DNA of 64,000 nt, taken from positions 1,580 through 65,579 of IMG/VR virus record IMGVR_UViG_3300021139_001731; one strand, 5' to 3'. Origin of the DNA: a virus. Its lineage: Duplodnaviria > Caudoviricetes. This document shows, in pieces, positions 1-61,072 of the stretch. A program made the position numbers and the translations under genes. Positions within the stretch are counted from its first letter, which is position 1. Every line of letters begins with the position of its first letter. The notes below the pieces were generated by a model, which saw only the letters and a program-made list of their open reading frames with translations, did not search any database and had not been told where the DNA came from.

Positions 1-118
1 AAAACAAAAAAAATATAATACTCTACTATAAAAAATAATCCAAAAATTTGATTAATATTAAATACAAACCTAAACCCAAATATATGATTTAAATTTTGTT
101 AATTAATATTAATTTAGT

Positions 119-142: not shown

Positions 143-1639
143 ATGAGAACAGTTTTAATAGGATCTGACTTTATGTATGATTCCAATGGAGATTTAAAGA
201 TTTTAGAAGTAAATACTAATATAACTTTAAATGTAAATGACAAAGTAGAAAACACAGAAGATGTATTTGATTTTTCACATTTACAATCATTTATATCAGA
301 TAGAGGATTCACAAGTATTGTTTATATTGGAAGTTTAATGGAGTTAGATACTGAATTGAAAACTTTTTGTGAAACTTTAAATATATCTTATACATTTTAT
401 AATGTTGGTGGTAACGCATTAACCGTACCATATGTTGAAGATGGTGATGATGTTTTAATTATTAGAAGTGCGTATGATACTACGGCTATTATTGATGATT
501 CATATTGTGCAGATAAATTCAATTTTGTAGAATTAATATCTAATGAAACATTTGGTTTACCCTATGCTTTAATTGATTCAACTAATACATTAGTAAATAC
601 AATTACTGAATTACCTGATAATGGTGTTCATCCAAATTTTATACTTAAATCTAGATATCCAAGTTATGATTTTAATGTTTACCCAAAATTATTTAAAATA
701 ACAAATTTAACTGAACTAGATATGGTAATTTCTGAGAATGTTAGTAATGAAGCACTTTTAGTTCCATATATATTCAATCCTAACAAATTATATAACGGAA
801 CACATATTCAAGCTATTAGAAGTTATAATATTCTTTATCCACCAACATTGGAATCTTTTAGTATTGGGCAATATACTGCAATTGGTGGTAATGCAGTTAC
901 TGAAACTCCATCTTATGATCCTACAACTTTAGTTTTAAATAGTATAGATAGAAACAAATATTTAACTAAACAAATGGATTATGATGGTTATCCAAAGGTT
1001 AGAAATACCGATAAATTATTATTGGCAGATGGTACTTGGGCTTCACCTGACCAAATTCAAGTAGGTACAATGTTAAAAACAATCAAAATACCAAATCCTA
1101 ATGGAATTGAGGTTACAAATGAATTTGGTGATTTTAATATGACATTGAATGACTTTAATTCAGGTGTTTCATATACTGAGGATAAAGTTTTAGGAGTTGA
1201 ATATGTAAATACTTTGAATAGATTAATTACAATAACATTTACGGATGGTAGTACTTGGTCAGATGGTCAATTTGTTAATTTTTTATGTGATATAAATAAT
1301 GATATTAGATGGCAAAGAGCGGATTTATTAAAGGCTGGTGATAAATTAATTGCATTAGAAGATGCAACAAGTTCAATTGTATTTGATACCACAAAGGAAG
1401 TTCAATCAATTACACTTACAACGGATTTTTTCACAGGTTGGGCTTTTACTGTTGAAAATGATCACTTATGGATTGTTCAAGATACTACTAATAATAATAA
1501 TTTTGCATTAGTAGAACATAACACATCTTGTTCAGCTTGTACAAGACTTTGTTCAGTTCAGTGTCCTGCTTGTCCTTCTAAATCACAACCTGCATGTGCT
1601 TCTAATCCGGCACCTGCAATATGTGTTTCTCAATGTTAA
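143..1639 (+). CDS. Fusion of circularly permuted ATP-grasp-like domain, Hint (intein-like) domain and C-terminal 8-Cys peptide
   Basis: N-terminal GSDFMYDSNGDLKILEVNTN (D...ExN metal-binding motif), FILKS and IRSY ATP-grasp-like motifs. aa ~285-460 Hint-like: LLLADGTW...IQVG, ITFTDG, W.RADLLKAGD, FTVENDH, ending VEHN. Then 38 aa with 8 Cys. Confidence 0.7.
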   Translation: MRTVLIGSDFMYDSNGDLKILEVNTNITLNVNDKVENTEDVFDFSHLQSFISDRGFTSIVYIGSLMELDTELKTFCETLNISYTFYNVGGNALTVPYVEDGDDVLIIRSAYDTTAIIDDSYCADKFNFVELISNETFGLPYALIDSTNTLVNTITELPDNGVHPNFILKSRYPSYDFNVYPKLFKITNLTELDMVISENVSNEALLVPYIFNPNKLYNGTHIQAIRSYNILYPPTLESFSIGQYTAIGGNAVTETPSYDPTTLVLNSIDRNKYLTKQMDYDGYPKVRNTDKLLLADGTWASPDQIQVGTMLKTIKIPNPNGIEVTNEFGDFNMTLNDFNSGVSYTEDKVLGVEYVNTLNRLITITFTDGSTWSDGQFVNFLCDINNDIRWQRADLLKAGDKLIALEDATSSIVFDTTKEVQSITLTTDFFTGWAFTVENDHLWIVQDTTNNNNFALVEHNTSCSACTRLCSVQCPACPSKSQPACASNPAPAICVSQC

Positions 1640-1663: not shown

Positions 1664-1753
1664 ATGGCTAAAATTATATCGGATATTGATATCCAAACTA
1701 TGAATACAATTACAACTCAAATTGGTAATTTAATTGTAACAACACATTCTTAA
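1664..1753 (+). CDS. Putative 29-aa micro-protein MAKIISDIDIQTMNTITTQIGNLIVTTHS
   Basis: ATG preceded by an A-rich leader like neighbouring genes; fills the gap between ORFs 143-1639 and 1771-2052; below the ORF-track cutoff. Confidence 0.4.
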   Translation: MAKIISDIDIQTMNTITTQIGNLIVTTHS

Positions 1754-2057: not shown

Positions 2058-2465
2058 ATGCATTTATATAAACATAGAAGTTATTTTGAAAAGTGGGATA
2101 AAAATAAAACATATAATTGGATTCCGAGCGATGATAAAGAAAGATTTGAATTAGCTTATAAAGAAAATCCAACGGATGAAAATTTGTTATATTATTTAAA
2201 AAATCCAATTGAATATAAACTAAATAATGAAGGATTTAGAACATTCGATGATTTTAATTCAACAGATGAGGGTAATGTATTTTTAGGGTGTTCACATACT
2301 TTTGGTATTGGACATCATTTAGAAAACACCTGGTCATATAAATTAAATGAAACGATTGGTGGTAAATTTTGGAATTTATCATTGGGGGGAACTGGTGTTA
2401 CTACTGCATTTAGATTATTATGTGGATATAGTAAAGAATTAAAAATTGAAAAAACATTGTTATAG
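2058..2465 (+). CDS. SGNH/GDSL-like protein, apparently C-terminally truncated
   Basis: GCSHTFG block I and NLSLGG block II-like motifs; only 135 aa and lacks the terminal His motif seen in paralogues. Confidence 0.5.
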   Translation: MHLYKHRSYFEKWDKNKTYNWIPSDDKERFELAYKENPTDENLLYYLKNPIEYKLNNEGFRTFDDFNSTDEGNVFLGCSHTFGIGHHLENTWSYKLNETIGGKFWNLSLGGTGVTTAFRLLCGYSKELKIEKTLL

Positions 2466-3214
2466 TGAAGCTGATATGGACATATGATGATACAACCGGT
2501 AAAAGTTTTTATAAAGATGAACACCGAATCACTTTAATAAATTATTATATTCTATCAATTACAAATGCTAAAAAATTAGGATATAAAACAATAATTTATA
2601 CTACAAATATTTCTAAAAAATATTTTGAAAACATAGTAGATGAAATAATTGTTGTTAATAGACCATATGATACGAAAGTTTGGGATTATTTAAAAATATA
2701 TGTTTTAGAAAATAGAAATGATAATTTTTGTTTAATCGATGGTGATTTAATTTTAAATAAAAAATTACCAATCTTTACAGAAGAAGTTTTATTTGATTCA
2801 GTTGATGATTGGAATTGGGAATATGAATATAATGATATTGTAAATCAATTTGCAAATTTAGGTATAAATGAAATAATTGATTTTTGGTCAACGGTAAAAA
2901 TACCAACAATGAATTTAGGTATATTATATATAGCAAATGATTTAATTAAAAATGAATATATACAAATGTGGAAAAAGATGAACCAATGGTTAAATATACA
3001 AACGCAAGAAATAAACTTTGATTTGGCAACTATGGTAATTAGTCAGTACCTATTAACATTAATTTGCAAAAAAAATAATGTAACAACTAAATCTTTCAGA
3101 AAAAACACAACTACAAAAAGTGATTTCTACAACCATTATATAGGTGATATTAAATTTAAAGAAAGTTTAGTTCCAAACGATACAATAATAAAAATTAATA
3201 AAACTTTTTTATGA
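2465..3214 (+). CDS. Putative nucleotide-sugar transferase (GT-A-like)
   Basis: GTG start overlapping the previous stop; LIDGDL DxD motif and MNLGILY. Confidence 0.5.
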   Translation: MKLIWTYDDTTGKSFYKDEHRITLINYYILSITNAKKLGYKTIIYTTNISKKYFENIVDEIIVVNRPYDTKVWDYLKIYVLENRNDNFCLIDGDLILNKKLPIFTEEVLFDSVDDWNWEYEYNDIVNQFANLGINEIIDFWSTVKIPTMNLGILYIANDLIKNEYIQMWKKMNQWLNIQTQEINFDLATMVISQYLLTLICKKNNVTTKSFRKNTTTKSDFYNHYIGDIKFKESLVPNDTIIKINKTFL

Positions 3215-3920: not shown

Positions 3921-4529
3921 ATGAAGATTTTATCCATTATTGGTATTATATTGTTATGTGCATGCAATAAAGAAGTTACTACACCAATACCACCACAACA
4001 TTCAGTTTTCTTTTCAATAGATTCAGTATTAAATAGGACAGGTTCAAATTCACTTACTTTGGATAAGAATGGATTTTATCATATGATTATTGATACAATG
4101 TCTTTCCAAAACTTAGCTCGTATAACAGGTACATTTTTAGTAGATGGTAAACCAAATAAAATACCATCGCCGGTCGATGAACAAATATTATGGAGTAGTG
4201 ACCATTATTGGGTATTAAGTGCAGGTGATACCGTTGCACAATTAGTAAAAACTTATTTTAATACTTTTACCGGTAAATTAATGACAGTTAATCTTAAACC
4301 ATTAATTTCATATCAATCATATTTAGTTCCTACAATAAATCCTGTTTCATATTCGGATAGAAGTAATGGTGAGGTTAATACAATGTTTGCCCCGGTTTCG
4401 GCAATGAAAGGAGATACTATTACAATTACAGGTAAGGCAAAATATACCATAGAGATACCAAATTCAAAATTATTTTCAGATGTTAAAATTGATTCAATTC
4501 AGAAATCAATCCGAATTATTTGTGATTAA
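3921..4529 (+). CDS. Putative lipoprotein
   Basis: MK + hydrophobic stretch + LCAC lipobox (Cys15). Confidence 0.65.
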   Translation: MKILSIIGIILLCACNKEVTTPIPPQHSVFFSIDSVLNRTGSNSLTLDKNGFYHMIIDTMSFQNLARITGTFLVDGKPNKIPSPVDEQILWSSDHYWVLSAGDTVAQLVKTYFNTFTGKLMTVNLKPLISYQSYLVPTINPVSYSDRSNGEVNTMFAPVSAMKGDTITITGKAKYTIEIPNSKLFSDVKIDSIQKSIRIICD

Positions 4530-6089: not shown

Positions 6090-6977
6090 ATGAGCGAATA
6101 TTCACAAATACTTCCGTTAAGAACAGACATGAAAGTAGTAGACCAATTTGGGTTTCTACCATTATCAATTAATAGACCAACAAAAGAAAGCAAAAACAAA
6201 TGGAAAGATGCTTATCTTAATGATGGTAAAAACGAAGAACGTAGAGGTAACACTGGTTGGCTGCCACATTATGCATTTTCAGAATTTCACGCCGGTTTAG
6301 CAGAAAACATTTTAAAGTTTTGGTCTATGAAAGGTAGTAGAGTTGTAGACCCATTTGCTGGTAGAGTGACCAGAGCATATGTTGCAACAAAGTTAGGTAG
6401 AGAGTACACAGGGTTCGAAATTTCCCCTAAAACTTACGAAAGGATACATGAACACTTTACTGGGTTTGGTATGAAAACTCCCGTTATAAATGGTGATGGT
6501 ACATTAATGGAAGAAATCGAAGATAAGTATGCAGATTTAATTATGACCTGTCCACCTTATTTTGATTTAGAAAAATATGAATCAGTACCTAATCAATTAT
6601 CAGATGAATCAAATTATGAAATGTTTATGAATAAAATTGATTTGTGTGTAGGTAATTGTTATAGAGTATTAAAGAGTGGTGCATTTGCATGTTGGGTTGT
6701 AGGTGATATTCGTAGTAAAGGTAAATTCTTAAACTTTCACGGTGATGTTATCAATTCCTTTAAGAAGCACGGATTTTTACAACACGATATAGTTATACTA
6801 GAAAATATTTCACCATTTGCAGCATTACAGATTGGTAAAACTGCAGCAAATCGTTACACATCAAAAGTACATGAATATCTATTAGTGTTTAGAAAACCTG
6901 GAGAATATGAAATTCCAGATTATGTAACACCAGATGAATTAGAACAAGAAACAAAATTAGCAGAATTTTTTAGTTAA
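6090..6977 (+). CDS. Amino (N4-C/N6-A) DNA methyltransferase
   Basis: Motif I VDPFAG and motif IV TCPPY. Start moved to ATG 6090 because the TTG at 6057 lies inside the promoter. Confidence 0.85.
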   Translation: MSEYSQILPLRTDMKVVDQFGFLPLSINRPTKESKNKWKDAYLNDGKNEERRGNTGWLPHYAFSEFHAGLAENILKFWSMKGSRVVDPFAGRVTRAYVATKLGREYTGFEISPKTYERIHEHFTGFGMKTPVINGDGTLMEEIEDKYADLIMTCPPYFDLEKYESVPNQLSDESNYEMFMNKIDLCVGNCYRVLKSGAFACWVVGDIRSKGKFLNFHGDVINSFKKHGFLQHDIVILENISPFAALQIGKTAANRYTSKVHEYLLVFRKPGEYEIPDYVTPDELEQETKLAEFFS

Positions 6978-7831
6978 TGAATTTAAGTAATTACGATACT
7001 ATATATTTTAACGGATGTTCGTTTACCGAAGGTGGTGGATTTGAAGCAGGTAAGGTATGGATTAAAAATGCATATAAACAAAAATATGGATTTGAATATA
7101 TTAACGAACAAGAAGTATGTTATCCTACCATAGTTCAAACTTTATTACCCAATTTAAAGGTTATAAATGATGCAAAAAGTGGTAGTGGAACTGAACGTGT
7201 TATTAGACGTACTTGGGAATACATTTTTAAAAATGGATTAGATAAAAGTAAAAAAACAATATTCAGTTTAGAACTACCTGGTTCAATTTCTAGATTAGAT
7301 TTATTTTCAAATGAAGAATACGAATATTTGGTTGGAAATATTGAATATAATGAAAAAGGAAAAGTAAACGATACACAAATTGTAGTAGATTGGATATATG
7401 GACCACCACTAAATGAAAATTATAGAAATGAAACAAGAAGAATTTTAAAAGAATATTCAGAAGCATTTATACATCCTGTTGAAAAAGAAAAACAGGTTGC
7501 ATATTCTTTATTTGGATTAGCTAGTTTTATGATATTAAATGATATTCAATTTTATTTTAGTGGAGATACTAGCTATACACAATACCATTTAAATTTACAA
7601 TATGATTATCCTAATTTTAATAACGAACATATTTTAAATCTAAAAATAGATAATAATTATTACAATAATATAGTAACTTTTGCAGATACAACAAAAACAA
7701 AAATATCAGATGAAGTTGGAGTAGATGTAACAACGGATGGTCATCCAGGTTTTCAGGCACATAAAGATTGGGCAAAGGCATTTGTGGATTTTTTACAAAA
7801 TAAAGATAATTATAAAAAACAAATAATATGA
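6977..7831 (+). CDS. SGNH/GDSL-like hydrolase or acyltransferase
   Basis: GCSFTEGGG, AKSGSG, terminal DGHP. Confidence 0.65.
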   Translation: MNLSNYDTIYFNGCSFTEGGGFEAGKVWIKNAYKQKYGFEYINEQEVCYPTIVQTLLPNLKVINDAKSGSGTERVIRRTWEYIFKNGLDKSKKTIFSLELPGSISRLDLFSNEEYEYLVGNIEYNEKGKVNDTQIVVDWIYGPPLNENYRNETRRILKEYSEAFIHPVEKEKQVAYSLFGLASFMILNDIQFYFSGDTSYTQYHLNLQYDYPNFNNEHILNLKIDNNYYNNIVTFADTTKTKISDEVGVDVTTDGHPGFQAHKDWAKAFVDFLQNKDNYKKQII

Positions 7832-12053: not shown

Positions 12054-12671
12054 ATGATAAAAATAGTAACAGACAAGGGAATATTAAAACAACCAATTCC
12101 TAACACACCATTCACTAAAGAAGAACAAGATTTAGCAACAGCTGCATTATTAACCGCAGTAACCGAACAACAAGGTTTAGGTATGAGTGCAAATCAAATT
12201 GGATTAAATAAAAGAATTTGTGTAATTAATGTGAGAGAAACTCCATTAGTATTAGTTAATCCAGAAATAGTTGATGAAGGACAAGAAAAATTGGTTTATT
12301 TTGAAGGTTGTTTATCTTTACCCAAAACAATGAAAAAACCTATTAAGACAGTTCGTTCTTATAATGTAAAGGTAAAAGCAGATAATTTTCCTGACGTATT
12401 AGAATTTGGTACGGAAGAAAGAAATCACGAAGATATTAATAAATTATTTAGTGATTTAGGATTATTAGAATCAGTTTGTGTTCAACATGAAATTGACCAC
12501 TTAAATGGTTTAACAATTAGAGATAGACAATATACTGAAACTGTACGTTTAACTGCATTTGCTAAATTAGGTAGAAATGAAAGATTTATTCTTAAAAAGG
12601 GTGAAGAAACACGTTCAGTTAAGAAAAAGAACCTATCAACTTACTTAGAACAAGGATGGGAGGTAGTATAA
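12054..12671 (+). CDS. def: Peptide deformylase
   Basis: All three motifs present: GLGMSANQIG, EGCLS, QHEIDHLNG. Confidence 0.95.
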   Translation: MIKIVTDKGILKQPIPNTPFTKEEQDLATAALLTAVTEQQGLGMSANQIGLNKRICVINVRETPLVLVNPEIVDEGQEKLVYFEGCLSLPKTMKKPIKTVRSYNVKVKADNFPDVLEFGTEERNHEDINKLFSDLGLLESVCVQHEIDHLNGLTIRDRQYTETVRLTAFAKLGRNERFILKKGEETRSVKKKNLSTYLEQGWEVV

Positions 12672-12945: not shown

Positions 12946-13666
12946 AAAGAAAAAAGACACCCGTTACTTTACGGAGCAAACGGAAGCTGCTATTATAGCA
13001 TATAATAAATCAGATAATCAAATTGAAAGAAATAGATTATATGCAGAACATATCCACTATTCATTTTATAAGTTAGCTGAGAATGTTTTAAATACATGGG
13101 GATTTACATACTTTGATGATGATAAAGAAGATATTAAATTTGAAGTAATTTCATTTCTTTTAGAAAAAATACATAAATTTGAAGAAGGTAAGGGTAAAGC
13201 ATTTAGTTATTTTACAATTGCAGCTAGAAATTATCTTATTTTAAATAATAATGCAAATTACAAAAGATTTAAAGCAACATCACAATTAAGTACAATGCCT
13301 GAAAGTTGGGATTTAGAAAATGATTTTAAACAAGTAAATCATAATGATGAGTTTAAAACATTCAATGAAAGAATGTTGCAATATTGGGATTTGAATCTTA
13401 ATAGAGAATTTACAAAAAAAAGAGATATTCAAATTGCAGATGCTGTTTTAGAATTATTTAGAAGAGCAGAATATATAGAATCATTTAATAAAAAATCGTT
13501 ATACTTATTGGTGAGAGAAATGACAGGTTATAAAACACATTATATAACTAAAGTTGTTTCTAAAATGAAAGAAACTCAAATGAAATTGTATTATCAATTT
13601 TTAGATGAGGGGGATATTACACAAGAATCAAAAGACCCTTTTTGGAAGAGAGTAATAACTAAATGA
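12938..13666 (+). CDS. Phage sigma factor (sigma70 region 2 / T4 gp55-like)
   Basis: KFEEGKGKAFSYFTIAARNYLI resembles region 2.3-2.4 of phage late sigma factors. Confidence 0.6.
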   Translation: MGRKKKDTRYFTEQTEAAIIAYNKSDNQIERNRLYAEHIHYSFYKLAENVLNTWGFTYFDDDKEDIKFEVISFLLEKIHKFEEGKGKAFSYFTIAARNYLILNNNANYKRFKATSQLSTMPESWDLENDFKQVNHNDEFKTFNERMLQYWDLNLNREFTKKRDIQIADAVLELFRRAEYIESFNKKSLYLLVREMTGYKTHYITKVVSKMKETQMKLYYQFLDEGDITQESKDPFWKRVITK

Positions 13667-15360
13667 GAATACTAGGTATATCAGCTTTTTACCACGACTC
13701 AGCAGCTGCATTAATTGTAGATGGTAAGGTCTTGTCTGCACAAGAGGAAGAAAGATTTACCGGTATTAAACATGACCAAAGATTTCCTATCAATTCGATT
13801 AATTGGATTCTAAAACAAAATAAACTTAAGATTAATCAAATAGATAAAATTGTTTGGTACGAAGATCCTAAAAAGAAATACGAAAGATTTAAAGAACAAT
13901 ATCACAAATATTTTCCTAAAACATGGAGATTAACTAAAAAGTTATTGACATGGAAAGGTAATAATGATATTGATTCTATTATTAGAAATACATTAAAGTA
14001 TAGAGGTGAAATAAAATATTGTGAACATCATCTTTCTCACTTAGCATATTCATTCTATACATCACCATTTACCGATGCACATTTATTCTCCGTTGATGGA
14101 GTTGGTGAAAACGAAACAGCCGTATTAGGGTTGGGATTAAAAGGTAAATACATTCAACAATTAGAAAGAAATTATTTTCCACATTCATTAGGATTATTAT
14201 ACGCATCCGTTACAGCATTCTTAGGATTCAAACCTAATAGTGGTGAATACAAAGTTATGGGATTAGCAGCTTATGGTAATCCTAAAGATGTGTATAGAGA
14301 ACAATTTGAAAAGTTAGCAAAACTAAACGGAAACACATTAGAATTGGATTTGAAATATTTTTCATTCCATTATTCAGAAAGAGGTATGTTTACCGAAAAA
14401 ATGGCTGAGTTATTCAATCAAGCACCAAGAACACCTGAAAGTGAAATTGAACCACAATATATGGACATTGCATTTTCATTACAAGCTCATTACGAAAGAT
14501 TATTCTTTGCAATGTTGAATAAATTTCATTCACACTACCCAATGGATAATTTATGTTTAAGTGGTGGTTGTGCATATAATGGTTTAGCAAATGGTAAGAT
14601 AACCTTAAATACTCCTTATAAGAATGTTTATGTACCACCTGCTCCATCTGATGCCGGTAGTGCTATTGGTTGTGCATTATATGAGTTTTACAAATCAAAT
14701 CCTACACATTCAAAGGTAGATAACCATAATCCCTATTTAGGTCCTCATTATCACAATGCAGATTATCTTAATGTACTTCATAGACTTGTTCCTAAAGATA
14801 AGATTAAACACACTCTAAACCCTATGGCGCTACATAAGCAGGTTGCTGCGTTAATTCACAAAGGAGCAATTGTAGGTTGGTTCAAAGGAAGTAGTGAATT
14901 TGGACAAAGAGCATTGGGACATCGTTCTATTTTAGCAAATCCAACTATTCCAGATATTAAACCTAAAGTTAATAGAGTTATTAAAAAGAGAGAAGGTTTC
15001 CGACCATTTGCTCCTATGGTAACGGCAGATGAAGCTAATAACTACTTTGAAATGTTGGGACAAGAAGTTCCTTATATGAATCAGGTATTTAAAGTTAAGG
15101 ATGGTTTTATTGCAGGTTTACCATCAATTACTCACGCCGATGGAACAGCAAGAGTTCAGACAGTAAAAAGAGAATTTAATACAGACATATATTTCTTACT
15201 TAAGGAATTTAAAAAATTAAGTGGATATCCTATTCTACTTAACACCTCATTCAATTTAAGAGGTCAAACAATGGTATTAGATCCTGAAACTGCTATTAAA
15301 ACATTTTACGATTGTGAAATGGATTATTTAGTTTTAGGTAGTTATATCATTAGTAAGTAA
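13663..15360 (+). CDS. Carbamoyltransferase (NodU/CmcH family)
   Basis: YHDSAAAL, EEERF, EHHLSH, GEYKVMGLAAYG, SGGCAYN, EFGQRALGHRSIL, KREGFRPFAP, LLNTSFN. Confidence 0.95.
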   Translation: MRILGISAFYHDSAAALIVDGKVLSAQEEERFTGIKHDQRFPINSINWILKQNKLKINQIDKIVWYEDPKKKYERFKEQYHKYFPKTWRLTKKLLTWKGNNDIDSIIRNTLKYRGEIKYCEHHLSHLAYSFYTSPFTDAHLFSVDGVGENETAVLGLGLKGKYIQQLERNYFPHSLGLLYASVTAFLGFKPNSGEYKVMGLAAYGNPKDVYREQFEKLAKLNGNTLELDLKYFSFHYSERGMFTEKMAELFNQAPRTPESEIEPQYMDIAFSLQAHYERLFFAMLNKFHSHYPMDNLCLSGGCAYNGLANGKITLNTPYKNVYVPPAPSDAGSAIGCALYEFYKSNPTHSKVDNHNPYLGPHYHNADYLNVLHRLVPKDKIKHTLNPMALHKQVAALIHKGAIVGWFKGSSEFGQRALGHRSILANPTIPDIKPKVNRVIKKREGFRPFAPMVTADEANNYFEMLGQEVPYMNQVFKVKDGFIAGLPSITHADGTARVQTVKREFNTDIYFLLKEFKKLSGYPILLNTSFNLRGQTMVLDPETAIKTFYDCEMDYLVLGSYIISK

Positions 15361-24789: not shown

Positions 24790-27700
24790 ATGTTAGACTA
24801 TTTAAGTAATTTATATTCCCAAAATATGGATGGTGCTACATACACACCATTCACTTCATTAGATGTCCTTAATAGTAGTTATGGAAATAATGGGGGTAGT
24901 ATAACAAGTGGAGATAGTTCACAAATTAATACAAATACACAAATTGTTCCGCCACCTACACCAACTGGTGCAGATATAAAATTATTTTTAGATAATATAG
25001 GAACATATAAGAATCAAATGACTTTTAATGTACAAGGTCAATCTTATAATGAAGGTTCAGTATTATTAATTGATTCAAATACAATTAATGATAGTTTAGT
25101 AATTAAACCAATAGTAAATGATGGGTTTACATTAAAAAATTATTTTGAATTAAAAAAGACATTAGTAAATGATACTATACTAATTGATGGTGTATATGAG
25201 CCAACAAAAGTTCCTGGTATTACTTTAATTACATATAATGGCTATGGTTCTACACAAGCAACATCTGATTATGTTTTACCACAAACTATTGATTTGGGTT
25301 TTGATTTAACTCAAACACCAACAGTAAAAACATTTACAAGAATACAAAATGTTTATTTAGTTACAAACTACAATAATACTCAATTAAATAGTGAATTAGA
25401 GGTAACAATAAATTCTATTGACTTAGTATCACCTAAAACAATAAGAATAGGTGATTCGGTTGATATAACCAATGTAAATAATACTTCATCAGATTTATCT
25501 ATTTCAATTAGTGGTTTATCATCATTTGATTTAAGTAATATTAGATGGCAATATTCTAGTAAATTTAATAGTAATAGTACATTTGATATTAATGATTTTA
25601 ATATATTAACATCGGATAATTCTGGATTATTAAGAAGTTCTGATTTTAATTCTAATATTATTTTATTAATTGAAGTAACACCAAATACATCTAATTATCC
25701 TACACTAACATTAGGTGTAAACGATATTAGCTATAATATAGCAGAAAGTGTATTTACAAATAAAAGTTCTAAATTAATTTCAATTCCATATAATGCAAGT
25801 AAATTAGATGGTATTAAAATAACAACACCATATAGAACATTTACTCAGGCGGTAAGTAGAAACGCAGAATTAGATTTACAAAACGATTTTCAAAATAACG
25901 AAGGTCAATTTAAAATATTACTTACTCCATATTCAGAATTATATGGTGATGGTGTTACACAATCAATTATAGTAACAATTAATAAAGTATTAGATACACC
26001 TATTATTGATAAAATAGATTATCCAACAAATGTAGTAATACCTGTTTATAGTTTTGGTGATACTAATTTTACAATATCATTTGAAAGTAATTTAGCTACA
26101 AACGTATTTATTTATCATTCAACTGAGGATAACTCTAATTTATTTGGTAATTTTAATTCAAAAGATAGTATTCAACTTAATTATAATTCTATAAAGGCAT
26201 TTAATACAAATGCAAAATTAGATTTATTATTAGTTCCATATAATGGAAATATAAAGGGGGAAATTGAAAGAATTAGTATTTTATTTGATGATCCTGGATT
26301 TTATGTTTCTACACAAAATTTAAAAGATGAATTATTTAATGCAATTGCATCTCAATTAAAATTTAATTTAAATAAACCAAATTATTTAAATCATTTAGCA
26401 TCATTTGATATTGATGATAAACAAATTATAATTTCAAATTGGGATACTGATAATACAACTTTTACTAAATTTAAGAATGATGAATTAGGTAATAAAGTTC
26501 CAGATGGAGAAATAAATAAAAGTATTGTATTAAAATTATACGAACCATTACCTACTAATATTAACAAAAATGATGTATTATGGGTATCTGAACTTGTTTC
26601 TTTACCAATACTTCAATCAGTAATTGTATCTGGAACACTTACTGATAATACTATACCATTAAGACCCGCTAATTTTAATATTGAAGTTGATTTTGTAAAA
26701 GGTCAATCTACCGGTTTTCAATCATATGATGGATTAATATTAAGTGGTTCACAAAGTTCTCAACAAATAGTAGATACATATTTAGTTCAAAACTTTATAG
26801 ATATCGAAGGAATTAATATAGATTATACAGATTTTTCTAATTTTGTAAAATATAGTAGTGCAGTTGAAAGATTAGCTAATTTTAAATATAAAAAAGATTT
26901 AATAGACTTTTATGATAATAAAATAGAAGTATTGTTACCATCTGCTAGTGTTTTACCAACTGTTCAATTAGATATTATAAATTATGAAAATAATAAAAAT
27001 ACATTAATTAATGGTTTTGATAATTGGGAAAAATATTTACAAAACAATGTATTTACTGGTTCTATTTCAACAAATGATTTATTATTAAATGAATATAACA
27101 CATATTTAAGTAATGCAACTATATACGATAAGGAAAATGTAAATTCATTAAAATCAAATATTCCAAATCATATTATAGAAGATAGTGGAAATTTAGATTT
27201 CTTATTGTTCTTAGATATGATAGGAAACTATTTTGATATTATATGGTCTTACATAAATGGTATAAGCGATCAAAAGAAAATTGCAGAAACTAATAAATCT
27301 GGTATAGAAGATAAATTTTTATATCAATATTTGGAATCATTTGGTTGGGATGCTAAAAATCTTAATTCTAATAAACAACTTTGGAACTATGTATTTGGAT
27401 TGAACGATGCAGGTTTAAATAACACATATACATCAGATGAATATTTAGGTGATAATACAATACAAATTACACCAGAACAAGCTACTAATCAAGTTTGGAG
27501 AAGAATTGCAAATAACTTACCATATCTATTAAAACATAGAGGTAGTGTTAGAGGTATTAATGCATTATTGACTTGTTATGGTATAGCTTCATCAAATCTT
27601 TCTATAATGGAATTTGGTGGACCTACAATCGATACCGTAGTAGATACTCCTAAATTTATATACGATAGTTTAACTTATAATTTAGTATTTGATAATAAAA

Positions 27701-29637
27701 ATGCAAATTTAATAATACCATTCAATGGAACACCAAAACCACAGGCAATTGAATTTAAAGTTAAGCCTGCTGAATTTGATAATTATGGATTTATAAATTC
27801 TAATGATTTTCAATTAGGTATTGTTGTAAATGGACATGGTTCAAATAAGTTTGGTAATTTTACAATTAATCATACACAAGTTGTAGGTGAACCATATCCT
27901 TTTTATGATGGAAATTATCATAGTATTTTGGTAAATAAAGTAGGTGATACAATTACACTTTATGCAAAAACAAATGATAAAGATAGAATCATACAAAGTG
28001 GACAATGGAGTGCAACAATCGATGGAAGTTTATATGAATCAACTACACAGATTGAATTTGTTGGATTTAGTGGTTCATTAGAGGAATTTAGATTATGGCA
28101 AACACCATTAAGTGAAAGTGTATTTGATAATCACGTTATAATGCCTGAAGCTATAAATGGTAACACAATTTATAGTTCAACTGAAGATTTATTATTAAGA
28201 TTAGATTTTGAAAGAGCACAAGATTTATCTTTAACGGGTTCAATAAATAATGTAGCTCCAAATTTAGGATATATTGATTCTATTACAACAGATCAATTTG
28301 GTATATCAGCAACTTATCCATATAATTATGAACCAGTAGAAAGAGAGTTATCATTGATAATTCCTAATAGTGGTGCAAGTAGATATTATACTAATAAAGT
28401 AAGATTAGAATCACAAGAATTAATATCCAATTTATCACCAACTCAAAGAGCAACTAAAAAGGCATTTGAAACATCTACAAAAGATTCTAATAGAGTAGGG
28501 TTATTATTCTCTCCTAATAAAGATTTAGATTTAGATATTGCAAAATCTTTAGGTGGTGAATCGTTTGATGATTATATTGGTGACCCTCAATATGAATATG
28601 GATATACAAATTATCCTGAATTAGATACTTTAAGAAATTATTATTTTGAAAGAGTAGGTGAAAGAAACATATATGAGTTTATTCGTTTAGTTAAATTTTA
28701 CGATAAATCTTTATTTGTTAATTTAAAAGAAATGTTACCAGCTAGAGCAAATGTAACTACCGGTCTTTTAATAGCACCTCATTTATTGGAAAGAAATAAA
28801 ATAAATGTAAATAGACCTAAAGCAGAAGCAGAAATCTTAGAAGGAGTTATAACTGATACTCAATTTAGTATTTTAGATGGTTCATATGAAGTATTAAATA
28901 GTGAATTAAATTTAGAAGATAGTTTATCTAATATATCCATAGTTAATGAAGATTTACCAGCTATTATAGATGCAACTGAAACTTACATTTTTAACGCAAC
29001 AAATTTAAGTTATAAAGCAGAAATTAATACTATTGAAACTACATTGGCAGCAGGTGAGGTTGATTCACATTATGGAGTTATAAATTATAAAAGAATAAGT
29101 AGTTCTATACAAACTGAATTCGACTTAATGAATGCTGGACAAGTTGTAGGTATGGACCAAAACTATATTGATTATGGATTTAATACTATGTTTGATAATG
29201 GTTATGGTAAATACACATATGAAGAAAATGGTATATTTAAATCAAAGGGTGTTAGAGCATTTTTAGTAACAAAAAGAAATGGTGTAATTACTAAATTAAA
29301 TCAAAATGGTGTTAGTGGTAGTGAAGCAAATATTTATACATCTTCTTATACTGAAGAATTATTAATACAGGATATTGGAATATCAAGTGGTAGTTTAGCG
29401 GGAGATCCTAATATTGTAAGTATAGTTACTGCAAGTGGTTATTTACCATCTCATTATATTTATAAAGGAGAGAAACACACTGGTATTCAAAATTTATTCT
29501 TTAGAGGTTCTAAACAAACAAGTGATACTACGATAGATGGAAAATCGCCGGTAGAAACATTTGTAACTAATCCAACTAAATTAAGAGTTACGGCACAGGG
29601 TAGAAGTAACAATGAACCTATATTAGAAGTAGATTAA
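24790..29637 (+). CDS. Large baseplate wedge protein (gp7-like) with LamG-like segment
   Basis: 1615 aa; LPYLLKHRGSVRGINALLTCYG wedge/tail-I-like motif; FSGSLEEFRLW LamG-like motif. Confidence 0.6.
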   Translation: MLDYLSNLYSQNMDGATYTPFTSLDVLNSSYGNNGGSITSGDSSQINTNTQIVPPPTPTGADIKLFLDNIGTYKNQMTFNVQGQSYNEGSVLLIDSNTINDSLVIKPIVNDGFTLKNYFELKKTLVNDTILIDGVYEPTKVPGITLITYNGYGSTQATSDYVLPQTIDLGFDLTQTPTVKTFTRIQNVYLVTNYNNTQLNSELEVTINSIDLVSPKTIRIGDSVDITNVNNTSSDLSISISGLSSFDLSNIRWQYSSKFNSNSTFDINDFNILTSDNSGLLRSSDFNSNIILLIEVTPNTSNYPTLTLGVNDISYNIAESVFTNKSSKLISIPYNASKLDGIKITTPYRTFTQAVSRNAELDLQNDFQNNEGQFKILLTPYSELYGDGVTQSIIVTINKVLDTPIIDKIDYPTNVVIPVYSFGDTNFTISFESNLATNVFIYHSTEDNSNLFGNFNSKDSIQLNYNSIKAFNTNAKLDLLLVPYNGNIKGEIERISILFDDPGFYVSTQNLKDELFNAIASQLKFNLNKPNYLNHLASFDIDDKQIIISNWDTDNTTFTKFKNDELGNKVPDGEINKSIVLKLYEPLPTNINKNDVLWVSELVSLPILQSVIVSGTLTDNTIPLRPANFNIEVDFVKGQSTGFQSYDGLILSGSQSSQQIVDTYLVQNFIDIEGINIDYTDFSNFVKYSSAVERLANFKYKKDLIDFYDNKIEVLLPSASVLPTVQLDIINYENNKNTLINGFDNWEKYLQNNVFTGSISTNDLLLNEYNTYLSNATIYDKENVNSLKSNIPNHIIEDSGNLDFLLFLDMIGNYFDIIWSYINGISDQKKIAETNKSGIEDKFLYQYLESFGWDAKNLNSNKQLWNYVFGLNDAGLNNTYTSDEYLGDNTIQITPEQATNQVWRRIANNLPYLLKHRGSVRGINALLTCYGIASSNLSIMEFGGPTIDTVVDTPKFIYDSLTYNLVFDNKNANLIIPFNGTPKPQAIEFKVKPAEFDNYGFINSNDFQLGIVVNGHGSNKFGNFTINHTQVVGEPYPFYDGNYHSILVNKVGDTITLYAKTNDKDRIIQSGQWSATIDGSLYESTTQIEFVGFSGSLEEFRLWQTPLSESVFDNHVIMPEAINGNTIYSSTEDLLLRLDFERAQDLSLTGSINNVAPNLGYIDSITTDQFGISATYPYNYEPVERELSLIIPNSGASRYYTNKVRLESQELISNLSPTQRATKKAFETSTKDSNRVGLLFSPNKDLDLDIAKSLGGESFDDYIGDPQYEYGYTNYPELDTLRNYYFERVGERNIYEFIRLVKFYDKSLFVNLKEMLPARANVTTGLLIAPHLLERNKINVNRPKAEAEILEGVITDTQFSILDGSYEVLNSELNLEDSLSNISIVNEDLPAIIDATETYIFNATNLSYKAEINTIETTLAAGEVDSHYGVINYKRISSSIQTEFDLMNAGQVVGMDQNYIDYGFNTMFDNGYGKYTYEENGIFKSKGVRAFLVTKRNGVITKLNQNGVSGSEANIYTSSYTEELLIQDIGISSGSLAGDPNIVSIVTASGYLPSHYIYKGEKHTGIQNLFFRGSKQTSDTTIDGKSPVETFVTNPTKLRVTAQGRSNNEPILEVD

Positions 29638-35100: not shown

Positions 35101-38100
35101 ATGAATAAATTAAAAAGAATTTATCACATTGCAGACATTCACATTAGAAACTTAAAAAGACACCAGGAATATAGAGAAGTTTTTAATAGATTATTTGAAG
35201 ACATTAAAAAGAGGGGAACTGAAGATTCCCTTATTTATTTAGCTGGAGATTTGGCTCACGCTAAATTAGAAATGTCACCGGAGCTTCTTAACGAAATAAA
35301 TTATTTTCTTAAGAAGTGTTGTGAATTATGTCCTACTATTCTAATTGCTGGAAACCATGATTGTAATTTAAACAATGTTGGTAGATTGGATGTATTGAGT
35401 CCAATTGTAGAAGCATTAGATTTACCTAACTTAACTTATTTAAGAGATACTCAATCTTATACCTATGGGGGTGTAAGATTTGATTTATTTTCTATTTTTG
35501 ATGATAAAGAAAATTGGAAGTTTGAACCAATTACATCAGATACTACAAATATTGCATTATTTCACGGACCAATTTTAGATGCAACTACTGATGTAGGTTA
35601 TCATATTTCTTCTAGACATTTTACAACTGAAATGTTTGATGGATATGATTTAGCTTTATTAGGTGATATTCATAAAAGACAAACTATGATTTCCCCAGAT
35701 GGTTGTAAAGTAGTTTATCCTGGTTCCCTTATTCAGCAAAATCATGGTGAGAAATTAACTGAACATGGTTATGCTATTTGGAATATTAGTGATTTATCAG
35801 TTGAATATGTAGATATTCCAAATGATTATGGTTATTATACTTTACATGTAGAGAATGGTATTGTACCTGATGTAACTGATATGCCTGTTAAACCAAGATT
35901 AAGAGTGTTGGTTTCAAAGACAGATGCCGCAGATATGAAAAGAGTTACTACTGAAATTAAAAAGAAATATAAAGTAGATGAGTTTACTATTACTCGTACC
36001 GATACATTAGCTCGTTTAAGAACAGGCAATAGAGATGGTAAGTTGAATGTAGGTAATGTAAATGACCCTCAATATCAAGCCGGTCTTATCAAAGATTATT
36101 TAGGTAGAAACTATATGTTAGATGCCGAAACATTAGGTAAGATTGAAGATTTGAATACTAAATTAAATAAGAAACTTACAGATGAAGATTTAGTTAAGAA
36201 TATAACTTGGAAGCCAATTCGTTTTGAGTTTGATAATATGTTCAGTTATGGTGAGAACAATATCGTTAACTTTGATAATATGAAAGGGTTAATGGGTGTG
36301 TTCGCTCCAAATGCCGCGGGTAAATCTTCTTTATTCGATGCATTATCTTTTTGTATATTTGATAAGAGTAGTAGAGCATTCAAAGCAGCTAATATCTTAA
36401 ACAATCGTAAAACAGAATTTAAGTGTAAGTTAGAATTTGAAATCAATGATGAGAAATTCTTTATTGAGAGAACTGCTAAATTAGCTAAGAAGGGTGACAC
36501 AGTTAAAGTAGATGTAAACTTTTGGAGATTGGAGGGTGATGAAATGATTTCTCTAAATGGAAACGAAAGAAGGGATACGGATAAAGCAATCGAAAGTTAT
36601 TTAGGAAAGTATGAAGATTTTGTATTAACTGCATTATCTTTACAAGGAAACAATTCCCTATTCATTGATAAATCACAATCAGAAAGAAAAGATTTATTAG
36701 CTCAGTTTATGGGTATTAATGTATTCGATAAGTTATATGATTTAGCAAGTGAGGATATTAAAGAAGTTCAGGTCTTATTAAGAAACTTTAAGAGAACTGA
36801 TTTTACATCAGAGTTAGCAACAGCAGAAACTAAATTAGAAGAACTTAATGATGAGTATGAAGAATTAGAAATTGAGAAAGAAAGTTACGAAGATAGACAA
36901 GATGAATTAAATGAAAAGATAACTGAATTATCAGCTCAATTAGTTCCAATGGATGGTAATTTGAATATTGATGATTTGAATACTAAAAAGGAAAAATTAG
37001 AAAATAGTTTAGAGGAATTAAAAGAATTAAGTATTGTTAAAGTGGCCAATATTAGTGATATTATTGGTAAGGTAGTAGAACTAAAAAAATTATTGGCTGA
37101 AAAAGCAACTCCTAATGGTATTGATATAGAAATTGTATATTCTAATTATAAAACAGAACAATCAAAGTTATTAGAAGCAACTAAAGTATATGATACTGCA
37201 AAATTACATTTGAGTTTAGCAGAAGAAAAGATTAAACATTTGGATAAACATGAATATGACCCTAATTGTAAATTCTGTTGTGATAATACTTTTGTAAAAG
37301 ATGCAACAAATGCAAAAAATGCATTACCTCAATTACAAGAAATAGTAAATCAAGCCCTAATAGATTGTACAGGTATTCAACAAACTTTAGATACAATGGA
37401 AGGTATCGAGAAACAATATAACGAAGTAGTTGATTTAAAAGCTAAAATACAAAAGGGAGTTCAAGCACATACCAATAGAACTTTAGAGTTTAATGGTATG
37501 ATTACTCAAAAAGAATTATACGAAGCACAATTAACGGCGGTTGAAATGGATATTGTAAGATACCACGCCAACGAAGCAAACATTCAAAATAACAATGTAT
37601 TGAATGGACAAATTGAAACTATTAAAGTTCAATTAGCAAGTGTAACAAAAGATTTAAGAAATATTAATTCTACCCTATTGCAAGTTAATGGTGATATTGC
37701 AAAAGCAAATTCTTATATAACTACCATTACTCAAAAAATGGAAGAAGCTAAAGGATTAGAAGAACAATATCAAATCTACGAATATTATTTAGATGCAGTT
37801 AAGAGGGATGGTGTATCATATGAATTGATTGCAAAGGCTCTACCAGTGATAGAAGGTGAGGTTAATAACATCTTACAACAAATTGTAGAGTTCGGTATCG
37901 TCTTTGATATGAGTGGCAAGAATGTGAACGCTAGAATTGTTTATGAGGATCAAAGTTGGCCATTAGAAATGTGTAGTGGTATGGAAAAATTTGTAAGTGG
38001 GTTAGCTATTAGAGTTGCACTTATTAATGTATGTAATTTACCTCGTCCAAACTTCTTAGTAATTGATGAAGGGTTTGGAACATTGGATAGTGATAACTTA

Positions 38101-38247
38101 CAATCTATCTTTATGATGTTTGATTATCTTAAAACACAATTTGATTTCATTAATATAATTTCTCACTTGGATGCAATGCGAGATATTGTAGATACATTGG
38201 TTGAAATTAAAAAAGTAGATGGTTTTTCTCAAATTCAATATAAATAA
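35101..38247 (+). CDS. Fused SbcD/Mre11 nuclease - SbcC/Rad50 ATPase (T4 gp47+gp46-like)
   Basis: ADIH, AGD, GNHD, FHG, GDIH phosphoesterase motifs; Walker A APNAAGKSS, zinc hook CKFC, signature CSGME, Walker B IDEGFGTLD, ISH. Confidence 0.93.
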   Translation: MNKLKRIYHIADIHIRNLKRHQEYREVFNRLFEDIKKRGTEDSLIYLAGDLAHAKLEMSPELLNEINYFLKKCCELCPTILIAGNHDCNLNNVGRLDVLSPIVEALDLPNLTYLRDTQSYTYGGVRFDLFSIFDDKENWKFEPITSDTTNIALFHGPILDATTDVGYHISSRHFTTEMFDGYDLALLGDIHKRQTMISPDGCKVVYPGSLIQQNHGEKLTEHGYAIWNISDLSVEYVDIPNDYGYYTLHVENGIVPDVTDMPVKPRLRVLVSKTDAADMKRVTTEIKKKYKVDEFTITRTDTLARLRTGNRDGKLNVGNVNDPQYQAGLIKDYLGRNYMLDAETLGKIEDLNTKLNKKLTDEDLVKNITWKPIRFEFDNMFSYGENNIVNFDNMKGLMGVFAPNAAGKSSLFDALSFCIFDKSSRAFKAANILNNRKTEFKCKLEFEINDEKFFIERTAKLAKKGDTVKVDVNFWRLEGDEMISLNGNERRDTDKAIESYLGKYEDFVLTALSLQGNNSLFIDKSQSERKDLLAQFMGINVFDKLYDLASEDIKEVQVLLRNFKRTDFTSELATAETKLEELNDEYEELEIEKESYEDRQDELNEKITELSAQLVPMDGNLNIDDLNTKKEKLENSLEELKELSIVKVANISDIIGKVVELKKLLAEKATPNGIDIEIVYSNYKTEQSKLLEATKVYDTAKLHLSLAEEKIKHLDKHEYDPNCKFCCDNTFVKDATNAKNALPQLQEIVNQALIDCTGIQQTLDTMEGIEKQYNEVVDLKAKIQKGVQAHTNRTLEFNGMITQKELYEAQLTAVEMDIVRYHANEANIQNNNVLNGQIETIKVQLASVTKDLRNINSTLLQVNGDIAKANSYITTITQKMEEAKGLEEQYQIYEYYLDAVKRDGVSYELIAKALPVIEGEVNNILQQIVEFGIVFDMSGKNVNARIVYEDQSWPLEMCSGMEKFVSGLAIRVALINVCNLPRPNFLVIDEGFGTLDSDNLQSIFMMFDYLKTQFDFINIISHLDAMRDIVDTLVEIKKVDGFSQIQYK

Positions 38248-47000: not shown

Positions 47001-48412
47001 TGCAAAAACTAGCAATTATAGTTCCATATCGAGATAGACAATCTCACTTAGAAGTATTTATTCCTTATATGGAAGAATATTTAAAGAATTATGATTACAA
47101 GATTTTTGTCATAGAACAAAATGATAGTAAACCTTTTAATAGAGGTAAACTTTTAAACATTGGTGCAAGAATTGCAATTAAAGAAGGATTTGATTATTTT
47201 GCATTACATGATGTGGATATGTTACCATTAAAAAATGTAGATTATTCTTATCCAGAAACACCTGTACATTTAATATCAAAAGTAGATAAAGAAGTTCCAT
47301 TCGTTGATTATTTTGGTGGTGTAACTTTATTTAATGTACATGATTACAAATTAGTTAATGGATATTCTAATGAGTATTGGGGGTGGGGGTTTGAAGATGA
47401 TGATTTATTATATAGATGTATACAAAGAAATATACCATTAGATAAAGTGGCATATGGTATAAAAGATAATAATTATTTGATTAATTATTTTAAATTCGAT
47501 GGAAATACATCATATATTAAAATACCTTATAAGAATTTTCAATCCATATTTAATTCTGATTTTACATTATCAATTAAATTAAAACCGGAAGATACTAAAA
47601 CTTCATTAAAAGAAACATTTGATGAATATTATGCAGTATCAATTCCAGGTAGAAACACTGGTATTTCATATACATCATTTAAAAGATATAAATCAGAAAT
47701 TTGGACAAAAGATGATAAATCAAAATCTATTCAATCAGATATATTAGGTGAAATATGGTCGCATTTAGTTTTAGTTAAAGAGAGTAATCAAATTTCATTT
47801 TATATGAATGGTGAATTAATTGGAACCGAACAACTAAGTGATTTATTGTATGAATATGATAATGATTATTTTTATATTGGTGTAGGTAATCCAACATTAG
47901 ATAGTAAACAATTTTATTTTAAAGGATTAATTGCTGAGTTTGCTATTTGGAATATTGCATTAGATAAAGATAATATAAATGAAGTATACGAAAATTCATT
48001 ATATAAATCAATCATTAACGATTATAGAAAATATAACAAATCAAAATATCTTAAATGTTATTATGATTTTAAAAATTTCAAAGGAGATATTATACAAGAT
48101 TTAAGTGGTAATAGAAACAATGGTATGATGTATAATTGTGAAGATGGTATTATACTAGATAAATTTGAAACAGAAATAGTAGTTCCTATCAGAAGAAAAG
48201 GACAATTTAAAACATTAAAACATACATCTAATTCTACAATTGGAAATAATTGGATTCATTCAGAAACAAGAAATAACCAAGAAAGATTTTATAATGAAAT
48301 GAAAGGTAACATTGTAGATTTATCTATCGATGGATTAAACACCTGTATTTTTAAAGAAATAGATAGAGTGGATATAACAGATAACGCAGTTAAAATTTCA
48401 GTTAATATATGA
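47000..48412 (+). CDS. GT7-like enzyme with inserted LamG domain (copy 2)
   Basis: IVPYRDR, FNRGKLLN, HDVD, WGWGFEDDD; LamG; C-terminal LKH...DGLN. Confidence 0.88.
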   Translation: MQKLAIIVPYRDRQSHLEVFIPYMEEYLKNYDYKIFVIEQNDSKPFNRGKLLNIGARIAIKEGFDYFALHDVDMLPLKNVDYSYPETPVHLISKVDKEVPFVDYFGGVTLFNVHDYKLVNGYSNEYWGWGFEDDDLLYRCIQRNIPLDKVAYGIKDNNYLINYFKFDGNTSYIKIPYKNFQSIFNSDFTLSIKLKPEDTKTSLKETFDEYYAVSIPGRNTGISYTSFKRYKSEIWTKDDKSKSIQSDILGEIWSHLVLVKESNQISFYMNGELIGTEQLSDLLYEYDNDYFYIGVGNPTLDSKQFYFKGLIAEFAIWNIALDKDNINEVYENSLYKSIINDYRKYNKSKYLKCYYDFKNFKGDIIQDLSGNRNNGMMYNCEDGIILDKFETEIVVPIRRKGQFKTLKHTSNSTIGNNWIHSETRNNQERFYNEMKGNIVDLSIDGLNTCIFKEIDRVDITDNAVKISVNI

Positions 48413-52893: not shown

Positions 52894-52894
52894 T

Positions 52895-61067: not shown

Positions 61068-61072
61068 AAAAT

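Follow-up and report, generated by a model that had tools for sequence, protein, structure and literature searches.

The stretch of viral DNA analysed here (the window: 64,000 nucleotides, positions 1,580 to 65,579 of the IMG/VR record IMGVR_UViG_3300021139_001731) begins 1579 nt into a 65.6-kb contig and carries, close to its start, a single open reading frame (ORF) in which an ATP-grasp-like ligase domain, a Hint domain and a short Cys-rich tail are fused. The frame upstream of this fusion ORF is closed by stop codons, the Hint domain ends in V457-E458-H459-N460, and the 38-residue tail that follows contains eight Cys residues; every feature that an earlier reading of the bare DNA (the sequence-only reading) had described for this ORF was found as stated. 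The same architecture is common to 656 full-length homologues, to 222 representatives at 50% identity and to 251 IMG/VR stretches, and the three-part arrangement is confirmed as real and not a chance ORF. An AlphaFold model built on a 70-sequence alignment of homologues (alignment A1) had a predicted local distance difference test (pLDDT) score of 85, and the tail was the only region of the full-length model with a score below 50. Full-text literature searches returned no description of a ligase-Hint-peptide layout, in keeping with the remark of the sequence-only reading that it did not recognise the architecture from any described phage or ribosomal-peptide (RiPP) system.

The ligase domain (residues 1–283) was folded alone (pLDDT 90) and compared with known structures using Foldseek and VIA-align. 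Its closest fold was that of Escherichia coli YjfC (7uk6, Foldseek E 2e-6); YgiC (7uka) aligned at Z 8.7 over 200 residues, covering residues 1–277, and further matches included eukaryotic glutathione synthetases, glutathionylspermidine synthetase and the fungal ligase Cp1B. The top 17 VIA-align matches were all ATP-grasp enzymes. The classical ATP-grasps RimK, LysX/ArgX and tubulin tyrosine ligase (TTL) could not be aligned before residue 55; the E22-x-N24 strand, which lies at the extreme N-terminus, was therefore taken to reflect the circular permutation of the glutathione synthetases. YgiC and YjfC have been described as peptidyl-polyamine synthetases, and the R/D...E-x-N residues are required for the activity of Cp1B (PMC12568646). 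Among 111 representatives sharing no more than 50% identity, D9, E22, N24, R108 and D118 show no variation and K169 and R226 reach a frequency of 0.99; the conserved Lys and Arg residues are predicted to lie at the ATP site. No sequence profile from Pfam, NCBIfam or the Protein Data Bank (PDB) recognised the domain, whole-protein sequence searches of the PDB, PHROGs and NCBIfam gave no match, and neither did a search of the PDB with a profile of the family. As a Z score of 8.7 is middling, the case for a ligase was built on the agreement among the hits, the Foldseek probability and residue conservation taken together, and on these the N-terminal domain looks like a working amide ligase that is predicted to join a carboxylate to an amine.

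Both domain proposals of the sequence-only reading were borne out by the structure comparisons. Residues 282–460 matched the NpuDnaB intein (4o1r) at Z 14.9 with a root-mean-square deviation of 2.4 over 139 aligned residues (Foldseek E 1e-7), the Tetrahymena bacterial intein-like (BIL) domain BIL2 (6tmm) at Z 14.8, a Clostridium BIL domain at Z 14.2 and Hedgehog at Z 13.5, and thus have the beta-fold of roughly 130–180 residues that defines the Hint superfamily. When the window Hint was aligned by hhalign with the canonical second Hint found in some relatives (probability 98%, E 1e-13), K285 was placed on Cys1 and H441 on the block-F His. Position 1 is Lys in 129 and His in 31 of 227 full-length members, no Cys being among the residues tallied, and no conserved block-B TxxH was present in these members. 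H459 is kept in 217 and N460 in 225 of the 227, and H441 is conserved in at least 90% of alignment A1. The residue at +1, Thr461 here, varies across 181 tails (A, V, L, S, F, G, P, Y and others). The domain therefore lacks the Cys or Ser at position 1, the TxxH and the conserved Cys, Ser or Thr at +1 that inteins use; canonical splicing is ruled out and the N-terminal chemistry has been lost. It has the block-F His, penultimate His and terminal Asn that serve C-terminal cleavage in inteins and type-A BIL domains, so that, as the sequence-only reading had it, the residues retained are those of C-terminal cleavage only (H441, H459 and N460). Cleavage at N460|T461 is thus the sole reaction left to the domain and, judged from these residues, a plausible one.

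In the window, the tail carries Cys at positions 463, 466, 470, 474, 477, 485, 494 and 498, the last being its final residue, together with five Pro, no Asp or Glu and one Lys (K480, codon 1580–1582, within C477-P-S-K480). Statistics were calculated for 185 short tails of median length 38 amino acids. Cys makes up 18.3% of these tails and 0.5% of the protein body, Pro 9.3% and 3.0%, and Asp plus Glu 4.5% and 14.3%, respectively. The number of Cys residues is even in 99.5% of the tails (six in 54, eight in 116 and ten in eight), which would point to disulfides rather than metal sites. All 185 tails contain at least one Lys and 126 contain exactly one, against an expectation, at the observed Lys frequency, that about a quarter of tails would have none; this Lys is in an internal motif of the C-P-K type, as here, in 134 tails and within the last four residues in 47. 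Across 122 pairs at 70–97% identity, the nonsynonymous divergence (dN) was 0.44 in the tail (0.58 at non-Cys codons), 0.11 in the ligase domain and 0.13 in the Hint domain, a rate four to five times that of the body, and the ratio to synonymous divergence (dN/dS) at the Cys codons of the tail was 0.07; given that the pairs lack independence and that the tail approaches saturation in dS, these values are read only as a much faster tail with a fixed Cys frame. The expectation of the sequence-only reading that homologous tails after His-Asn would be hypervariable yet Cys-rich was thus borne out by the 185 tails. It had also judged graspetide-type crosslinks to be unlikely, and with a core that has no acidic residues to act as acceptors, such crosslinking is ruled out for the window peptide.

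Variant architectures provide the best indirect evidence for release of the peptide. A search of 1.8 billion representatives with the ligase domain alone recovered 222 relatives, most of which have the layout seen in the window. Eight of them possess a second complete Hint domain that starts with Cys and ends with His-Asn. In six (P0155, P0156, P0180, P0194, P0215 and P0230) this second Hint directly follows the Cys-rich peptide, and in the other two (P0145 and P0266) the Hints are separated by just seven and two Cys-free residues. The second Hints exceed the Pfam cut-off for Intein_splicing or PT-HINT (for example, E 1e-15 for P0155 and E 1e-12 for P0215) and are followed by a tiny Lys-containing end (KK, KKF or AKKF). 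The peptides of the double-Hint relatives themselves have no Lys, this residue coming only after the second Hint, and these relatives retain all of the ligase catalytic residues. In other relatives a Peptidase_S74 intramolecular-chaperone domain, preceded by ...K|S-D-x-x-x-K, comes after the peptide (in P0177 it scores 25.3 bits, the cut-off being 22), so that the peptide ends in Lys at the cut; domains of this type are known to self-cleave. Still other relatives carry 150–700 residues of different cargo after His-Asn, including BACON domains. The window ORF stops after its peptide and does not have a BIL-cargo-BIL arrangement. A self-cleaving module on each side of the peptide is difficult to account for unless it is released with both ends exposed, and the variants accordingly support a freed peptide.

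The genes that follow the fusion gene are listed with its parts in Table 1; they make up a conserved cassette of micro-gene, zinc-ribbon-like protein and C-terminally tagged enzymes that the sequence-only reading had missed. Directly after it in relatives is a micro-ORF of 24–30 amino acids with the core ...N..T.IG.LIV..NS, of which 48 distinct versions were found, and next comes a zinc-ribbon-like protein of 87–108 amino acids with six conserved Cys and the C-terminal tag described below, represented by 55 versions; both are near-ubiquitous beside the fusion gene. The zinc-ribbon-like protein of the window matched only unnamed viral clusters in the ESM Atlas. In a single relative (P0139; L093:81-1034, 317 aa) the ligase domain is joined directly to a C-terminus resembling the micro-peptide, ...NEMNSIMTRIGNQILLKNS, with neither Hint nor Cys tail; being a single case, it gives no more than a hint of joint action of micro-protein and ligase. 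The order differs in the double-Hint and S74 clades, where the zinc-ribbon-like gene lies upstream of the fusion gene (L089:3394-5274 and L090:7001-8788), a different micro-ORF of 39–45 amino acids ending in KHLS or KHLQ follows it, and the tagged neighbours, described below, include a tryptophan halogenase and a 566-aa radical SAM enzyme. One 211-kb IMG/VR contig (L060 and L066) has two diverged fusion genes, each with its own micro-ORF and zinc-ribbon-like gene.

Table 1. Positions within the window of the fusion gene, its parts and the associated genes.
Feature	Position	Strand	Remarks
3' end of the third of three 2-oxoglutarate (2OG)-Fe(II) oxygenase genes	1..31	+	genes at contig 60-1610, mostly upstream of the window
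Fusion ORF: ligase, Hint and Cys-rich tail	143..1639	+	ATG start, 498 aa
Permuted ATP-grasp ligase domain, aa 1-283 (by fold)	143..991	+	fold matches, residue conservation
Hint domain, aa 285-460	995..1522	+	Lys285 at Cys1 position; H441 (block F), H459 and N460 kept
Asn460 codon AAC; predicted scissile junction N460|T461	1520..1522	+	kept in relatives
38-aa tail T461-C498, predicted released peptide	1523..1636	+	3774.4 Da reduced
Micro-ORF, 29 aa, core ..N..T.IG.LIV..	1664..1753	+	C-terminus THS (NS in most relatives)
Zinc-ribbon-like protein, 93 aa	1771..2052	+	tag KKTLF; invariant C35, C51, C54, C56, C70, W11, W75
135-aa protein, no family assigned	2058..2465	+	tag EKTLL
249-aa protein, weak DUF6734 match	2465..3214	+	tag NKTFL
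2OG-Fe(II) oxygenase-like protein, 174 aa	3211..3735	+	tag TKTIV; PHROG match
284-aa protein, no family assigned	6977..7831	+	tag KKQII

Many of the proteins encoded around the fusion gene share a C-terminal tag, which within the contig was defined as K-x(0-1)-[TNQS]-[ILFMV]-[ILFMV], or in short K-[TSN]-hydrophobic-hydrophobic. This pattern ends 9 of the 65 ORFs of the contig, compared with 0.09 expected from its internal frequency of 0.0015 per position, and seven of the nine tagged ORFs lie no more than 8 kb from the fusion gene. When 58 distinct related loci were scored, the tag was present in 74, 71, 59, 56, 42 and 43% of the genes at positions +1 to +6, falling to about 10% by +9, and in 7.6% of upstream genes. 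The tagged proteins of the contig include four 2OG-Fe(II) oxygenase-like proteins, the three encoded upstream and the one listed in Table 1. The first two upstream oxygenases match PF13640 above the cut-off and the third matches PF03171 weakly; their C-termini are KKNNII, KKNLM and KYNTLL, the last being a near-match to the tag. Among diverged relatives, tryptophan halogenases and radical SAM enzymes are also tagged. The codons of the tag vary synonymously (ACA/ACT/ACG/ACC for Thr, AGT/TCA for Ser and TTA/TTG/CTA for Leu), which indicates selection on the protein and speaks for rejecting a motif at the DNA level (a promoter, a terminator or a coupling signal, for instance). An effect of AT-rich composition is likewise rejected, given the low internal frequency and the asymmetry between upstream and downstream genes. 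The tag was found in none of 52 ORFs from a region of a cultured cyanophage that has no fusion gene, three 2OG oxygenases among them, a weak control because the GC content of that phage is higher (41%). The run of tagged genes in the window is broken at 3921–4529 by a 202-aa ORF with a lipoprotein-like signal, MKILSIIGIILLCAC, and no family match. Two further tag-ended ORFs (51242–51925 and 59292–59693) fall within the glycosylation cluster described below.

The window has a GC content of 28%, with one strand carrying nearly all of the long ORFs. Its genes include those for a baseplate wedge protein, for a hub with lysozyme, for Hsp20, for a carbamoyltransferase, for a peptide deformylase and for an SbcCD-like nuclease in fused form. 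The virus is a large, uncultured T4-like myovirus; no tRNA genes were found in the window. The contigs on which relatives are located reach 335 kb and include genes for tail sheath and baseplate. Neither the fusion protein nor the 93-aa zinc-ribbon-like protein had a relative among 50,697 phage records searched by tblastn and megablast, and the fusion gene was found in no cultured phage record. A scan of 185,579 species genomes gave a single match, on a 2-kb contig of a metagenome-assembled genome labelled 'Candidatus Diapherotrites' (L091; CAIWXP010000069.1), which is most likely a mis-binned phage fragment.

Other genes of the window were recorded in passing. The nuclease is a 1048-aa ORF (35101–38247) matching the SbcD-like nuclease subunit over residues 2–301 and the SbcC-like one over residues 349–1047, whose counterparts in the compared cultured cyanophage are separate genes (gp47 and gp46, respectively). 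A 1615-aa ORF (24790–29637) occupies the stretch of lowest GC content (24%). Peptide deformylase and Nol-like carbamoyltransferase genes are located at 12054–12671 and 13663–15360; a carbamoyltransferase gene is near the fusion gene in several relatives, and a second conserved micro-ORF (37–38 aa, ending in DPFIYNH) was found after the carbamoyltransferase gene in three relatives (L001:5286-5402, L002:4768-4884 and L006:5864-5977). A sugar-nucleotide and glycosylation cluster at 48409–62050 comprises three NAD-dependent epimerases/dehydratases, a dTDP-sugar isomerase, a thiamine pyrophosphate (TPP) enzyme, a fusion of GT7 with a lectin and two radical SAM proteins.

Taken together, we lean modestly toward interpreting the fusion ORF as a self-processing peptide precursor that brings its own ligase and heads a phage cassette for peptide tailoring. 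In the mechanism we favour, Asn460 would cyclise to a succinimide and break the N460|T461 bond, freeing the 38-residue peptide, a step suggested by the conservation of the key residues. The tagged oxygenases, which resemble prolyl hydroxylases, and other enzymes of the cassette would probably decorate the peptide, and outside the reducing cytoplasm it would oxidise to four disulfides; both steps are suggested by its composition. The fused ligase would activate a carboxylate as an acyl phosphate and join it to an amine, forming an amide bond at the expense of ATP. The favoured candidate for the amine is the single obligatory Lys, K480, and for the carboxylate a conserved C-terminus from the same cassette, either that of the 29-aa micro-protein or those of the tagged proteins. 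That the Hint unmasks an amine and the ligase then links the peptide, through its Lys or its new N-terminus, to a cassette tag or to the micro-protein is a tentative proposal, to which we assign a low probability. A hypervariable product held in a Cys frame would most likely act outside the cell in conflict or recognition.

Several observations weigh against this interpretation of the ORF as a self-processing precursor. The ATP-grasp assignment was made by fold alone, at a middling Z score. PT-HINT (PF07591) is the best Pfam match of the Hint domain and falls below the cut-off (21.5 versus 27.7 bits, E 2.9e-4), and cyclisation of Asn is slow in many inteins when the preceding steps are missing. 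The tail, with its low pLDDT, has no predicted docking site in the model, and the rate estimates carry the non-independence and near-saturation noted above. The tag may have nothing to do with the ligase and instead signal degradation, and its pattern was defined after examples had been seen, for which the contrast between upstream and downstream genes scored with the same pattern serves as an internal control.

In a rival reading the Hint would be a degenerate scaffold that does not cleave, with the tail remaining in place as a zinc-binding or disulfide module of a ligase acting on a small molecule such as a polyamine or a glutathione-like thiol: Cys1 and block B have been lost, the CxxC spacing is compatible with metal binding, and the nearest ligase folds produce small-molecule amides. 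However, in a dead Hint one would not expect His-Asn to survive in more than 95% of 227 diverged members with everything else drifting, and a structural tail would be unlikely to evolve four to five times faster than the body. The second self-cleaving domain that follows the peptide in relatives, and cargo after His-Asn that ranges from about 20 to more than 500 residues and includes BACON-domain proteins, likewise argue against a scaffold, which we consider distinctly improbable. The diversity of cargo and the fast-evolving tails are in line with a polymorphic effector module. Ligase and Hint would form the constant carrier of a variable C-terminal toxin, inhibitor or binding cargo, released for use in conflict between phage and host or between phages; another step would employ the ligase, and a degron of the ClpX type, timing the turnover of the enzymes, would be what the tag represents. 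A constant N-terminal part with a HINT domain before a variable cargo is the logic of polymorphic toxins (PMC3482391). The tag, basic and then hydrophobic at the C-terminus, would fit a degron as well, with its resemblance to basic-hydrophobic C-terminal signals of the ClpX type. A domain for trafficking or secretion is missing, though, as is an immunity-like gene next to the fusion gene; the ligase is invariant and in every case part of the fusion, and the tags cluster directionally, downstream of the fusion gene, which leaves such a module an unlikely explanation.

The remaining readings differ in what the ligase would join. The sequence-only reading had preferred head-to-tail cyclisation or ligation at a terminus. 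In the cyclisation, the alpha-amine of T461 and the carboxylate of C498 would be linked into a cyclotide-like, disulfide-rich macrocycle. The Hint would free the N-terminus, related ligases act on the C-termini of peptides, the second Hint or the S74 domain of relatives would expose the C-terminus of the peptide, and type-A BIL domains ligate through attack of an amine on a thioester. The last residues of the tails are highly variable, however, the +1 residue varies as well and is Pro in 12 of 181, the double-Hint relatives keep all of their ligase catalytic residues, and the obligatory Lys, the micro-protein and the tags would go unexplained; cyclisation thus appears very unlikely, and the sequence-only interpretation as a whole is partly supported. 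If instead the carboxylate that the ligase activates is at the C-terminus of the tagged proteins (...K-T-L-L-COOH) or of the micro-protein, and is joined to the Lys or freed alpha-amine of the peptide, the peptide would become a covalent tag, an ATP-driven counterpart of the ubiquitin-like conjugation mediated by BIL domains. The conserved C-termini of the cassette proteins and the Lys present in every short tail would then be accounted for, and the nearest folds, YgiC and YjfC, ligate peptide carboxylates to amines, with matches extending to LysX/ArgX, RimK and TTL(L), which act on protein C-termini. BIL2 of Tetrahymena BUBL is a top match of the Hint domain, and double-Hint relatives set the peptide between two Hints as BUBL does. 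On the other hand, each fusion protein could supply only one peptide for 5–10 tagged proteins, a phage would gain no evident benefit from tagging its own enzymes, and the tag has the degron-like look noted above; conjugation of the peptide as a protein tag is therefore rather improbable in our estimate. The self-processing precursor heading a tailoring cassette is the interpretation we retain.

If this is correct, widespread large aquatic phages make their own fast-diversifying disulfide peptides from a precursor that carries both the releasing protease and a ligase. This would constitute a new biosynthetic logic for peptides that are made by the ribosome and modified after translation (RiPPs), with an enzyme-sized leader that removes itself and tailoring enzymes addressed through a common C-terminal tag. 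Arrays of dioxygenases and halogenases in cyanophages are unexplained, and peptide modification has been proposed for them (PMC2938197); the peptides described here would be candidate substrates for the dioxygenase arrays of aquatic myoviruses, in a related phage group. Useful parts could include a cleavage-only Hint, a compact amide ligase of 283 residues and a short enzyme tag, and in the hypervariable peptides there would be a large, untapped collection of scaffolds of a knottin-like or conotoxin-like kind. Should the ligation also hold, the conjugation chemistry would be like that of ubiquitin or sortase, which is not known from any virus.

Among known systems, the phage ligase shares a permuted ATP-grasp topology with E. 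coli YgiC and YjfC, glutathionylspermidine synthetase and the eukaryotic glutathione synthetases (7uk6, 7uka, 2io7 and 2hgs), including the Mg-binding E-x-N strand near the N-terminus. It differs from this group in being about 100 residues smaller, in having no detectable sequence similarity and in its fusion to a Hint domain and peptide. LysX/ArgX with the zinc-ribbon carrier LysW, RimK and TTL are ATP-grasp ligases that act on the C-terminal carboxylate of proteins, and LysW is paralleled by the small zinc-ribbon-like protein with a conserved C-terminus that is consistently encoded beside the phage ligase; their fold match is weaker (Z 5.1–5.4, from residue 55 onward only), and the phage tag ends in hydrophobic residues rather than Glu and is common to many enzymes.

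BIL domains and the BIL-ubiquitin-like-BIL loci of Tetrahymena (BUBL; 2lwy, 6tmm/6y75) are among the top structural matches of the Hint (Z 14.2–14.8) and cleave without splicing and with no need of a +1 nucleophile, as is predicted for the phage Hint, and the BIL-cargo-BIL order of the BUBL loci is matched by the double-Hint relatives. In contrast to these, the phage Hint has no Cys1 and therefore cannot form a thioester, stands alone in the window, and precedes a cargo that is not ubiquitin-like. Like the RiPP pathways for graspetides/microviridins, ranthipeptides/SCIFF and conopeptide-like disulfide peptides, the phage system combines a ribosomal precursor bearing a hypervariable Cys-rich core with tailoring enzymes encoded close by (2OG oxygenases, joined in relatives by radical SAM enzymes and halogenases). 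Its 'leader', however, is a 460-aa enzyme plus autoprotease, its ATP-grasp belongs to another clade, its core offers no Asp or Glu for the crosslinks of graspetides, and the common element is a tag on the enzymes instead of a leader on the precursor.

In the pretoxin-HINT proteins of bacterial polymorphic toxins (PF07591; Zhang et al. 2012, PMC3482391), a Hint domain likewise lies directly before a hypervariable cargo on a constant N-terminal part, and autoproteolytic release of the cargo is predicted. The phage system lacks an immunity gene and any part of the secretion, RHS or filament kind, its neighbours being the micro-ORF, the zinc-ribbon-like protein and enzymes; its N-terminal part is an enzyme, the ligase, its cargo is a Cys-framed peptide of 30–60 amino acids, and it is encoded by a phage. 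The HINT-before-variable-cargo order of the polymorphic toxins (PMC3482391) is nonetheless the nearest described logic. The ligase-Hint-peptide layout may represent a novel route by which peptides are made, decorated and released.

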